From assembly GCA_963770935.1 (NCBI GenBank), contig CAVYRJ010000008.1, forward strand, positions 1 to 64,000: a DNA stretch of 64,000 nt, written 5' to 3'. Source of the DNA: Candidatus Bathyarchaeota archaeon (lineage in GTDB: Archaea; Thermoproteota; Bathyarchaeia; Bathyarchaeales; Bathycorpusculaceae). Made by a program: the position numbers and the translations under genes. Of this stretch, positions 52,849 to 55,346 are shown in pieces. The notes beneath the pieces are model-generated. The model had not been told where the DNA came from. It worked only from the letters and a program-made list of their open reading frames with translations, and made no database searches. How positions within the stretch are numbered: the first letter of the stretch is position 1; every line of letters starts with the position of its first letter.

Positions 52849-52926
52849 TGGTGGACCGAGAGGGATTTGAACCCGCGACTTCCGCGTTGCGAACGCGGCG
52901 ATCATACCGAACTGATCTACCGGCCC
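52849..52926 (-). tRNA. tRNA-Ala(CGC)
   Basis: GGGCCGG...CCGCG-TTCGCAA-CGCGG...GGTTCAAATCC...CGGTCCACCA; full cloverleaf with encoded CCA. Confidence 0.95.
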
Positions 52927-53091: not shown

Positions 53092-53676
53092 TTAGTATCT
53101 TGGTCTGTAACCGCCGCTGCCGCCACCGCGTCGATCTCCACCTCTACTGTCTCGACCGCCGCCGTAACCGCCACCACCGTATCCTCCGCCGCCACGTCTA
53201 TCTCTTCCGCCACCGTATCCTCCGCCTCCGCCGCCGAATCCGCGTCCGCCTCCTCTTCCGCCTCTAAATGGTCTGCGTTCTTGCTCGTATGTCTTGCTTG
53301 AAACGTTGTTTTCTGTGTTAACTTCCACTGTGAGTGGCTCTTTTGCTTGGTCGAGTTTACCGTATTTGCCAATGTTTAGGCGTATGTTGCCTTTGAAGAG
53401 TGTAACATACCCATTTTCTATGCGCACTGTGTCTGCTTCGTTGACTTTTTCAATGTTGTCGTCCCACAGTGTCAGGTATACAACGCCAGTTTCGTCGCCG
53501 ATGAGTGCATCGCTGACTTTGTGTGCAGATCCATCTCTGCCCATTGGAATTTCGCGTATTTCTGTTTTGGATACTACTTTGGCCGTAACGTTAACCGCTT
53601 TTGATTGTGGGGTTAAGTCTCCGACTTTTGCTTCTACTGGTTCCTTTTTGTTTTCGAAAAAACCTTCAACAGCCAA
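53092..53676 (-). CDS. ssb: Single-OB-fold ssDNA-binding protein with long RGG/YGG tail
   Basis: VGDL.P....VNV..KV, GDETG...LTLWD, NGYV..FKG..RLNIGKYG. Confidence 0.85.
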   Translation of the reverse strand: MAVEGFFENKKEPVEAKVGDLTPQSKAVNVTAKVVSKTEIREIPMGRDGSAHKVSDALIGDETGVVYLTLWDDNIEKVNEADTVRIENGYVTLFKGNIRLNIGKYGKLDQAKEPLTVEVNTENNVSSKTYEQERRPFRGGRGGGRGFGGGGGGYGGGRDRRGGGGYGGGGYGGGRDSRGGDRRGGGSGGYRPRY

Positions 53677-53803
53677 TTGATTTCACCTATTTTGTAATCT
53701 GAGACACAACTTAGCTTTCTCTACACTTAAGGGTTTCGCTTTGGATGACTTTTGGGATTTTAGCGTTTAGGATATAAACTTGCATGTGTATTTACGTCTC
53801 AAT

Positions 53804-54686
53804 ATGAAAAACCAGTATGTTGCAGTGGCCGTTTTTGTTTTAGCAGTGCTGGTAGTCGGCGCTTTAGCGTTTTCTTTATCTAGTTTAGCTCCTTTTAACG
53901 GTTCATCTCCAACTCCAACGCCGACCCAAACGCCTCCTCCAACTTCGGCTACGCCAACGATATCGCCTGCTCCAACACTAGACCCATCCACATCAAACGG
54001 TCCCACAATCTACACCTACAAAATAGTAAAAACCTATCGCCATGACCCCAGCGCCTTTACTGAAGGTTTAGTGTTTGACAACGGCGTTTTGTACGAGAGC
54101 ACTGGCTTAACGAGTTCTCTTCGGCGTGTGGATCTTGAAAGCGGCAACGTGCTGCAGAAAGTCAGTTTGTCTGAGGAATATTTTGGTGAAGGTTTAGCAG
54201 TTGTTAATGATTCACTGGTTCAGCTGACATGGCAAAACCAGATAGGTTTCATCTACGACAAATCCACATTTAGTTTGCTGGGTAATTTTAGTTATGACAC
54301 AGAGGGTTGGGGCTTAACTAACGATGGCAACCGATTAATCATGAGTGATGGATCCTCAAAACTGACTTTCCTAGACCCAATTACCTTTCAGAAAAATGGG
54401 CAAGTAATCGTCCATGACGGAAACAACGTCTATAACAAACATCAACGAACTGGAATATGTTAACGGAGACGTTTACGCCAACATTTGGCTGCAACAAAAA
54501 ATCGCCATCATAAACCCACAAAATGGAAATGTGAAAGGCTGGATTGACTTAACAGGAATCTACCAATCGCACAACATAGATGACGTTTTAAACGGAATTG
54601 CATATGACTCACAAAACAACAGACTCTTCATCACAGGCAAATACTGGCCAAACCTCTACCAAATAACAATAACCCCTAAAACATAG
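53804..54686 (+). CDS. Membrane-anchored glutaminyl-peptide cyclotransferase (frameshift near 54430)
   Basis: HDPSAFTEGL, LYESTG, YFGEGL, QLTW, EGWGLT, NELEY, YANIW, VLNGIAYD, ITGKYWP. Confidence 0.9.
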
Positions 54687-54884
54687 CATCTCAGAAAAAA
54701 CTTTTGAAGTCTCTAGAATGCGTGTGATAACAAGCCTGTGATAGGTTTTTGGGCATTTGTTTTGGGGTGGTTTTTTTAAAAAAAGGCTATTTAATCTTTG
54801 GTAAAAAGTTCGCACATGAATATTTCCAAAAAAAGTGGAGTTTAACGGTTTCTCCGCTTTTATTTTTTCTTCCACTTAATTTTT

Positions 54885-55118
54885 TGCAGGTCAAGTCTGA
54901 GCCTTATTGTTGCGTACAGCCCACCTAAGCGATGTCTTTGACCGCTGCAGATTTTATGCGCCGTTTTGAACCTGCAACTCAAAGCTAAGGTGCCACAACA
55001 CTATGCATGTTCAGCCCACTGAGGCAAAGTCTTAGTCGCGCACTAATATTTCGCTGTTTGAATCAGCACGCATCTATGCCTCAATGCATTGCATCTAAAG
55101 CTTGCTCCTTGACCTGCA
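54885..55118 (-). ncRNA. Novel structured RNA closed by an 11-bp terminal stem and a canonical BHB motif; predicted ~205-nt excised/circular RNA (54897-55101)
   Basis: TGCAGGTCAAG/CTTGACCTGCA; 4-bp GAGC/GCTC helix with 3-nt purine bulges AAG and AGA; two long G-U-rich hairpins; no ORF. Confidence 0.75.
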
Positions 55119-55140
55119 TATTCTACTTATCACTATCTTC

Positions 55141-55156
55141 ATAATAAATATTGCGA
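55141..55156 (-). promoter_or_regulatory. Putative BRE/TATA for the BHB RNA
   Basis: CGCAATA-TTTATTAT located ~25-30 nt upstream of the RNA 5' stem. Confidence 0.5.
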
Positions 55157-55346
55157 CATTTGTGCTACATAATGAGACAAAAATGTCCCATTTGTAACAT
55201 AAGAATATATGCTGGGAAACTAAAAGAATCGCTGTGACCAGTTTTTTCATATAAAAAAGAAATTTCACATTTTGGCAATTGAAAAATGTGTTATTTAGAA
55301 TTGGGTCGCGGTTTTGGTTGTTCAGTTTTCTTTATTTTTGAGGATC

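Follow-up and report, generated by a model that had tools for sequence, protein, structure and literature searches.

A probable stand-alone gene for a structured circular RNA with bulge-helix-bulge ends in Bathyarchaeia

The DNA analysed here, called the window, is the whole 64,000-nucleotide (nt) stretch at positions 1 to 64,000 of contig CAVYRJ010000008.1 from a Candidatus Bathyarchaeota archaeon, and on its minus strand it carries a 234-nt element whose ends pair into a motif of the bulge-helix-bulge (BHB) type. Most probably this element is a stand-alone gene from whose transcript a circular product is released by BHB-dependent excision; a preliminary description of the window had proposed such a dedicated gene for a circular noncoding RNA (ncRNA), and the conserved BHB motif, the processing enzymes encoded by the host genome and RNA contigs that span the junction support that model. 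The parts of the gene and its product lie as follows.

55118-54885, minus strand: the 234-nt element, with a canonical helix-bulge-helix-bulge-helix (hBHBh') motif at its ends, made of an 11-base-pair (bp) outer stem, a 4-bp helix and two 3-nt bulges
55142..55157, minus strand: promoter read from the sequence, a GTCGCAA resembling a B recognition element and then the TATA box TTTATTA (55148-55142)
55108..55118, minus strand: 5' strand of the outer helix (h), TGCAGGTCAAG, the 5' 'exon'; pairs perfectly with 54895-54885
55104..55107, minus strand: 5' strand of the central 4-bp helix, GAGC; pairs with GCTC at 54902-54899
55101..55103, minus strand: 5' bulge AAG; cut at 55102/55101, which makes G55101 the first base of the circle
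54899..54902, minus strand: 3' strand of the central 4-bp helix, GCUC, placed by sequence, covariation and homologue geometry
54896..54898, minus strand: 3' bulge AGA; cut at 54897/54896, which makes G54897 the last base of the circle
54885..54895, minus strand: 3' strand of the outer helix, CTTGACCTGCA, the start of the 3' 'exon' and exact complement of TGCAGGTCAAG
54828..54884, minus strand: 3' trailer read from the sequence, a hairpin AGUGGA...UCCAC and then seven U (54834-54828)
54897..55101, minus strand: the 205-nt circular RNA, RNA positions 18-222 of the 234-nt element, placed by RNA contigs

The 11-bp stem, the GAGC/GCTC helix and the AAG and AGA bulges that the preliminary description had recognised at the gene ends were all found on the minus strand; both bulges sit 3' of their own central-helix strand, and the inner helix of the motif in the window is CTT/AAG, 3 bp. 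The TATA-like box that it had put about 30 nt upstream is the TTTATTA at 55148-55142, which lies 24-30 nt upstream of the BHB motif on the same strand. Since archaeal TATA boxes stand at -26/-27 relative to the start, transcription would be expected to begin at about 55119-55117, where the outer stem has its first base. Homologues within the genus carry GTC(G/A)C(A/T)A..TTTAT at an equal distance from the element. The promoter word GTCRCNANNYTTAT occurs twice genome-wide, and because the second site, where Rfam finds no match, precedes an ordinary protein gene, the promoter is a normal archaeal one. A scan for bacterial-type promoters and terminators flagged nothing at the locus, as is expected for an archaeon. 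On the downstream side, AGTGGAA is kept in the closest homologues, and the run of seven U is likely the transcription stop of the primary transcript, archaeal transcription being known to stop at oligo-U. The ligated flanks encode MQVKEQT*, as had been read from the sequence earlier, and the element lies, as likewise claimed, outside tRNA and rRNA genes, the only such gene of the window being a tRNA-Ala at 52849-52926.

Homologues in Bathyarchaeia, which the preliminary description had named as a check, conserve the BHB geometry, and they do so with covariation. In the strict test that we applied, the outer stem has to run for 5 bp or more without interruption, the central helix has to have 4 bp, the bulges 3 and 3 nt and the inner helix 2 bp or more. 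This geometry was found in 71 of 86 distinct homologues; in another 12 the helix and the bulges are kept but a flanking stem has a mismatch or a shift, and the other 3 are aberrant or truncated. The 5' bulge is A-N-G in 71/71 scored homologues and the 3' bulge is AGA in 69/71. The central helix is 100% paired in 32/32 aligned sequences and also in the single-unit alignment, and its letters vary among the homologues (GAGC, GAGU, AAGU, AAGC or GGGC with GCUC or GCUU); the outer stem shows compensatory changes on both sides in 8 of 11 pairs. This conservation of geometry among homologues makes the motif more than a chance pairing. The inner helix is weak in some class-level members, where it amounts to 1 bp plus an internal loop; in genus g71 it is a 6-bp CUCUGG/CCAGGG, compensatory to CUU/AAG. 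As a separate observation, one genus copy in genome G025 (L033:1490-1695 / L174:1501-1706) has neither the central helix nor the bulges and scores 58 bits, against about 200 or more in most genus copies; it is either decayed or differently processed.

The predicted back-splice from 54897 to 55101 is present, with exactly this junction and with uncovered flanks, in public RNA libraries. The stretch is contained in 19 metatranscriptomic runs from 10 studies, the best of which contain 0.72 of the words sampled from a 291-nt query, roughly as expected if 205 of these 291 nt were present. We aligned the contigs of four runs (X1, X2, X3 and X7, from four studies) to positions 54800-55200. In all four the cover starts at 54893/54897 and stops at 55101, with a depth of 0 in both flanks, and the promoter-side stem, the 3' stem strand and the trailer are without any RNA contig cover; this zero cover is taken as evidence only jointly with the joined contigs. 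In X1, X2 and X3 a single contig (224, 232 and 231 nt, respectively) overruns both ends of 54897-55101: past 55101 the contigs carry CTGAGCCTTATT(G), a stretch of plus strand that runs on from 54897, and ahead of 54893 they carry (TGC)ATTGCATCTA, which is the plus strand of 55085-55097, while run X7 shows just one of the two overrunning ends. Positions 54893-54896 in the contigs hold one mismatch, as expected for a junction ...CTA-AAGC|CTGAGCC.... On the RNA strand the junction reads ...GGCUCAG|GCUUUAG... and joins 54897 to 55101; its two adjacent G must be G54897 and G55101, and the cuts therefore fall at AA|G and AG|A. EndA, the archaeal splicing endonuclease, cuts between the second and the third bulge nucleotide, as in tRNA introns.

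The 205-nt circle exists in nature. It is very improbable that the RNA is linear in the cell and that the wrap-around contigs arose as artefacts of assembly or library preparation: although the evidence is from contigs and template switching can produce chimeras, the same junction recurs to the base in 4/4 runs from 4 studies, in three of them at either end of the contig, it falls on BHB cut sites that had been predicted beforehand and at which the cover ends, and no tandem DNA copy is present at the window locus or at 32 aligned homologous loci. The host genome encodes both EndA (PF01974, 74.3 bits) and RtcB (PF01139, 591.6 bits). By the mechanism that we propose, transcription would start at the first base of the 11-bp terminal stem, and the ends of a primary transcript of about 300 nt would pair into the helix-bulge-helix-bulge-helix motif; EndA would then cut each bulge between its second and third base, at AA|G and AG|A, and RtcB would close the excised piece into the 205-nt ring, the short flanks being lost. 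The excised 'intron' would be the sole stable product of the gene.

Some points weigh against this account. The circle is seen in assembled contigs and not in raw reads, and these contigs show the junction, not the circular-to-linear ratio or the strand; cutting by EndA and ligation by RtcB we infer from the BHB geometry; and the minimum free energy (MFE) optimum is not the BHB fold, since ViennaRNA prefers another register, AGCUUUA/UAAGGCU, at -84.8 versus -81.4 kcal/mol for the BHB conformer, a difference of 3.4 kcal/mol. Once the ends are ligated, the competing register becomes a hairpin across the junction, with 6 bp and the loop UCAG. Between the two registers, the compensatory inner helix of genus g71 favours that of the BHB.

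The ring interior consists of two tandem homologous units of a domain of about 95 nt. Each unit begins with a closing stem, which is followed by a 3'-strand bulge of 7-9 nt (G-GCYG-RA), a second stem of about 12 bp, an internal loop of 1x8 (GAYNAAGA), a third stem of 11 bp and a loop of 13-15 nt (AAAC-NNNC-GAAA), and the circle would fold as a three-way junction of a junction hairpin and the two homologous domains. In the window the parts are placed as follows.

55003..55092, minus strand: domain 1, placed by folding and alignment covariation
55092-55087 with 55009-55003, minus strand: Pc1, closing stem of domain 1, paired by eye
55086-55074 with 55029-55017, minus strand: P1 of domain 1, with changes on both sides in 7/10 pairs
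55071-55062 with 55047-55038, minus strand: P2 of domain 1, with changes on both sides in 9/11 pairs
55060-55049, minus strand: apical 13-nt loop of domain 1, from folding
55053..55056, minus strand: loop strand CAGC of pseudoknot 1, pairing with GCUG at 55015-55012
55037-55030, minus strand: 8-nt bulge of domain 1, GACUAAGA, from folding
55016-55010, minus strand: bulge strand of domain 1, GGGCUGAA, from folding
54908..55000, minus strand: domain 2, with closing stem Pc2, P1', 9-nt bulge, P2' and 15-nt loop
55000-54996 with 54912-54908, minus strand: Pc2, closing stem of domain 2, UGUUG with CAACA, with compensatory variants
54960..54963, minus strand: loop strand CGGC of pseudoknot 2, pairing with GCUG at 54920-54917
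54943-54935, minus strand: 9-nt bulge of domain 2, GGUCAAAGA, from folding and alignment

The two interior hairpins of the preliminary description correspond to P2 and P2', and the strand asymmetry it had noted is confirmed, since folding gives a z-score of -3.44 for the minus strand, matched by 1 of 200 shuffles, but only -1.46 for the plus strand. In the two-unit alignment of 32 distinct sequences, 91.9% of 2036 cells are paired versus 84.3% in shuffles (0/500 as high), double changes occur in 41 of 64 pairs versus 24.7 expected, and slid controls pair at 30-41%. In the single-unit alignment (27 sequences) 92.5% are paired versus 78.0% in shuffles, with both-side changes in 37 of 49 pairs and slid controls at 27-46%. 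P1' and P2' change on both sides in 7/8 and 6/9 pairs, respectively; the extension of P1 in domain 1 consists of N-N and G-C pairs, as taken from the single-unit alignment.

Both pseudoknots are supported by covariation. Pseudoknot 1 is nearly invariant in the genus, with 99.2% of cells paired, and takes the compensatory form CAAC/GUUG in genus g71 and in other families; in the single-unit alignment the pseudoknot pair 64-107 is GC in 20, AU in 4 and GU in 3 sequences. Pseudoknot 2 shows both-side changes in 3 of its 4 pairs (pair 163-209: GC 24, AU 5, GU 1; pair 165-207: CG 14, UA 10, UG 4) and occurs as CGGC/GCCG, CGGU/ACCG, CAGC/GCUG and CGAC/GUCG, and as AGGC/GCCU in genus g71 and other families. 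Since the stems between loop and bulge are equal in length, the pseudoknot would need them side by side and folded back, and the two stems of each unit would pack back to back.

The closing stems are graded differently. In the one-unit RNAs, with double changes in 6/9 pairs, the closing stem is well supported by the alignment; that of unit 2 in RNAs of the window type is moderately supported, Pc2 having the compensatory variants UGCUG/CAGCA, UGCAG/UUGCA and GCGUU/GACGC and a native mean of -5.73 versus -4.50 kcal/mol for foreign partners in a partner-swap duplex test. Counting against the proposed fold is Pc1 of domain 1, which was assigned by inspection and whose native and foreign partners the same swap test did not separate (16/32).

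The element matches no known RNA class among those examined. With Rfam 15 at gathering thresholds the tRNA-Ala is the only match of the window, and under permissive settings no model reaches E < 0.1 on the element, where all that appears is a match of 14.9 bits at the 3' edge, taken as chance; a check by Rfam, which the preliminary description had named as decisive for novelty, thus puts no family on it. Nor is there a tRNA, rRNA or mRNA around the BHB motif that would make it a tRNA intron or an rRNA-processing stem. That the element is a permuted, fragmented or diverged housekeeping RNA (signal recognition particle (SRP) RNA, RNase P RNA or a piece of rRNA) or an H/ACA or C/D guide we regard as extremely unlikely. 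BHB circularisation is said to act on a permuted SRP RNA, but the element has no Archaea_SRP match, and this genome holds a complete SRP RNA at C8:290903-291217 (150 bits) and a 5S rRNA gene elsewhere. RNase P RNA is absent from the matches of this assembly, G000, which is 91% complete; the element has no RNaseP_arch match, though, and a canonical gene is present in 20 of 24 other genus genomes, many of which also bear the ring, so that the gap in G000 reflects an incomplete assembly, the gene probably lying in the missing 9%.

ACA and CUGA strings after stems would speak for a guide RNA. An H/ACA guide is defined by a two-sided pseudouridylation pocket, a kink-turn (K-turn) or K-loop in the upper stem and ACA directly 3' of the lower stem, and a box C/D RNA by a C box RUGAUGA and a D box CUGA that form a K-turn; the element has no such pocket, no K-turn and no RUGAUGA box. 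With dimensions of 0x7 and 1x8 its loops are not two-sided, its apical loop is the pairing partner of the bulge strand, and the ACA bases lie partly within the Pc1 stem (a pairing judged by eye). UGAUGA does not occur in the 234-nt sequence, and CUGA occurs only inside a pseudoknot strand. An initial reading of the GA motifs as a K-turn, the site of L7Ae, was dropped because their G pairs with C in 26/27 sequences and the neighbouring pair, the one before that G, covaries (UA 11, CG 7, AU 5, UG 4), which leaves a 1x8 loop.

Going beyond the preliminary description, the analysis yielded the tandem pseudoknotted domains, a class-wide family of RNAs with 1-3 domains and a candidate protein partner. 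A second copy in the same genome (G000:C13:8644-8868, plus strand; L002:1501-1725) is 71% identical, has the central helix AAGU/GCUU and lies in a different promoter context. By blastn the element was found in 27 of 36 other genus genomes and in 0 of 24 genomes of other families. A covariance model built from the 32 distinct sequences was then used for family, order and class samples; since Infernal was run with stricter filters, the counts from these searches are too low, and genome G129, negative in the order search, nevertheless has a weak match beside the partner gene. In the family sample 11/151 genomes and 5/70 genera were positive. The order sample gave 74/151 positive genomes (f11 33/34, f7 19/35, f5 4/4, f1 14/35, f6 2/25, f12 1/3), with full presence in genera g16 (19/19, within f7) and g18 (20/20), and in families f2, f3, f4, f8, f9 and f10 the covariance model found no RNA. 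Positive in the class sample were 25/151 genomes, six families outside the order included. With a single-unit model 8/151 genomes of the phylum sample were positive, all of them Bathyarchaeia, and about 131 other Thermoproteota in that sample gave no match. A pattern scan of a public genome collection returned at least 118 stretches; among the 80 listed were 18 true matches, all in Bathyarchaeia or in metagenome-assembled genomes of Bathyarchaeota, and the other listed ones were chance matches in bacteria. In the samples searched, the family is specific to Bathyarchaeia.

Members hold 1, 2 or 3 copies of the domain. The one-unit form, of about 135 nt and with rings of 106-112 nt, is found in many lineages, two-unit rings measure 192-208 nt, and a three-unit member of 318 nt (L031:1294-1611, minus strand, in G013) has its unit 1 duplicated in tandem. 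Genomes contain up to 4 copies, as in G052, and one complete genome has one two-unit and three one-unit copies. A truncated copy with the 5' half only (L204, G251:C14:87934-88078; L179:2979-3231) lies about 1.2 kb from a complete copy and near a contig end. In another genome an identical element with identical flanks of at least 45 nt on each side stands on two contigs (L008 and L035; G001:C9 and G001:C3), reflecting either a recent duplication or assembly redundancy. Clustering of open reading frames (ORFs) gave no conserved neighbour of the ring gene within the genus, the largest cluster beside the element being a spurious antisense frame over the RNA, which was rejected. In three genus genomes (G002:C4, G023:C13 and G010:C13) one contig carries both the ring gene and the RNase P RNA gene, 8-27 kb apart, probably without meaning.

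ORF clustering around 61 loci brought out one conserved neighbour, a protein of about 215 amino acids, at 13 loci in three families. The protein has no Pfam or NCBIfam match, every named one of its 2453 homologues is called 'hypothetical', and in the ESM Atlas it occurs in Bathyarchaeota clusters only. Residues ~48-203 of its predicted model, which has a predicted local distance difference test score (pLDDT) of 90.7, resemble proteins of the PD-(D/E)xK group (3dnx, Z 9.7; XisH, Z 9.2; AF1548, Z 8.7; AF2093, Z 7.6; NucS, Z 7.3), and Foldseek gave the same kinds of neighbours with weak E-values. This fold has an alpha-beta-beta-beta-alpha-beta core in which beta 2 and beta 3 bear acidic residues; E55, D82, E95 and E97, which are invariant in the protein, presumably correspond to the D...ExE site of PD-(D/E)xK nucleases. 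Judged from the best structural neighbours of its model, the protein would be of the PD-(D/E)xK fold.

Across 151 order genomes, RNA and protein occur together in 70, the RNA only in 4, the protein only in 19 and neither in 58; the protein is thus present in 70/74 RNA-positive genomes of the order, and it is present in 23/25 of the class. Where the two genes adjoin, in 37 genomes, they are divergent in 37/37, with gaps of 82-391 nt, and the same arrangement is seen outside the order in f23, f25 and f27. In two f14 genomes (L247:118-270, plus strand; L246:554-708, minus strand) the corresponding position next to the protein gene is taken by a BHB-flanked RNA of about 155 nt, which has its own TATA box and, as its interior, a long irregular hairpin without the loop and bulge motifs of the family. 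As a side observation, at 10 loci of f11 (e.g. L212:1745-3229, minus strand) the ring gene is flanked on its other side by a gene for an ATP-dependent DNA ligase, the order being ligase, ring gene, PD-(D/E)xK gene; this adjacency may be plain synteny.

Tentatively, and at somewhat less than even odds, we favour the reading that the ring and the PD-(D/E)xK protein form a particle of which the ring is the stable RNA component, each domain serving as a binding module, and that the ring RNA would gate, sequester or direct this protein. The main rival is a sponge, aptamer or scaffold that is independent of the protein, the ring being a self-standing regulator that self-assembles or has a small molecule or an RNA-binding housekeeping protein as its ligand, and the protein being merely syntenic; we consider this possible, if rather doubtful. 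The aptamer-like domain, with its compact pseudoknotted fold and many invariant unpaired purines, and the range of 1 to 3 units would suit it, but it leaves unaccounted for the divergent pairs with short gaps in several families, the rarity of the RNA without the protein and the f14 RNA that has a different interior at the same place.

Several observations speak against the particle and in favour of its rival. In the genome of the window a different contig carries the protein gene (the ORF at G000:C9:114519-115196), the two genes are likewise non-adjacent across the genus, and they are unlinked in genus g16. Protein without detectable RNA occurs in f24, f20 and f10: in f24 the protein is present in 27/27 genomes and the RNA in 1/27, and in five f24 genomes no RNA was found within 700 nt upstream of the protein gene. 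Moreover, related genomes are not independent, and the two-by-two table therefore overstates the association. Around the protein genes of two f20, one f10 and one f17 genomes there was no credible RNA match, an f10 match (E 0.18) and an f20 match (E 0.63) being judged chance; a BHB-motif pattern gave one match in the five f24 genomes, in G+C-rich sequence, which was also taken as chance.

Tandem pseudoknotted units next to a nuclease-fold gene, the patchy spread among families and the several copies in some genomes, such as the 4 in G052, also bring to mind a selfish or relic BHB-bounded, intron-like element, or an RNA repeat that neutralises a neighbouring nuclease in the manner of type III toxin-antitoxin systems, in which tandem pseudoknot repeats of the ToxI type lie next to a gene for a nuclease-like protein. 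The ring resembles ToxI-type RNA in its tandem pseudoknotted units adjoining a gene for a nuclease-like protein. It differs in that the genes are divergent rather than co-directional, the RNA would be made into a ring by BHB/EndA processing, the predicted fold of the protein is PD-(D/E)xK and not ToxN, the spread is apparently vertical and unlinking is frequent, which a toxin-antitoxin pair would find hard to tolerate in the several lineages concerned. The conserved promoter at a fixed distance, the 1-4 copies with a family-consistent, apparently vertical occurrence (20/20 in g18, 19/19 in g16) and a set of conserved neighbours without transposase or integrase also run counter to this idea, and we hold it to be improbable.

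Going further than the particle, one may speculate, with more doubt than confidence, that a closed RNA of 1-3 modules, made by the tRNA-splicing machinery, binds and directs or gates a PD-(D/E)xK nuclease and so forms a new archaeal ribonucleoprotein. If true, the ring would act as a circular RNA guide or regulator, and Bathyarchaeia alone would have a novel type of enzyme made of RNA and protein.

Elsewhere in the window, a glutamine cyclotransferase (PF05096) at 53780-54686 on the plus strand is split into two overlapping frames, 53780-54463 (profile positions 19-166) and 54414-54686 (163-249), by a frameshift that is due either to a pseudogene or to an assembly error. At 53092-53676 on the minus strand lies an Ssb-like gene of the oligonucleotide/oligosaccharide-binding (OB) fold, in which about 53100-53300 has a G+C content of 0.635 versus about 0.38 around it, with strong skews.

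With the circular tRNA introns and the circular intermediates of pre-16S and pre-23S rRNA, the ring shares the hBHBh' motif, the cut positions in the bulges and the circular product. It differs from them in that there is no host RNA, the flanks being an 11-bp stem plus a trailer, and in that those circles are by-products or intermediates whereas here the ring is the conserved, structured and abundant product. The nearest precedent is the permuted SRP RNA of Thermoproteus, reportedly a free-standing BHB-processed ncRNA gene whose functional form arises by EndA cutting and ligation. Both are free-standing genes with BHB ends; the Thermoproteus RNA, however, is a rearranged member of a universal family, while the ring shows no detectable relation to SRP RNA, for which its own genome has a separate, ordinary gene.

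Functional or stable RNAs released as excised circles are described for the box C/D small RNA (sRNA) in the tRNA-Trp intron of Haloferax and Pyrococcus, a BHB-excised circle (PMC7714728), and for the tRNA intronic circular RNAs (tricRNAs) of metazoans (PMC4536317). Both ride in a tRNA gene, whereas the ring has its own promoter and no host; unlike the sRNA of the tRNA-Trp intron it is also without C/D boxes and has a pseudoknotted modular fold. The archaeal circular RNAs named in the literature include rRNA, tRNA introns, whole tRNAs, 5S RNA and omega-RNAs, the last without BHB (PMC12558985), the archaeal EndA substrates named include tRNA, rRNA, one mRNA and the 5' untranslated region of one more gene (PMC7714728), and a study that includes Bathyarchaeia treats circular rRNA only (PMC12918454). 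Full-text literature searches on circular RNAs of archaea and of Bathyarchaeia and on BHB ncRNAs brought up no description of the ring family. The biogenesis pathway is a known one; what is new is the RNA family and the use that is made of the pathway.

The BHB/EndA/RtcB route, known for tRNA introns, rRNA precursors and one rearranged SRP RNA, would here serve a dedicated, conserved and highly structured ncRNA that is mature as a ring, which makes the locus a clean natural example of a prokaryotic 'gene for a circular RNA'. The RNA occurs in such amounts that small metatranscriptomes, from ten studies, were enough to assemble it. It presents a new RNA fold with two covarying pseudoknots, useful for structural work, it offers for study a candidate protein partner with more than 2,400 homologues, and as a natural scaffold of about 105-205 nt it could inform engineered BHB-based expression of circular RNA. 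For the organisms themselves, the finding gives a family of such rings that spans a class of abundant, mostly uncultured archaea of sediments and soils.

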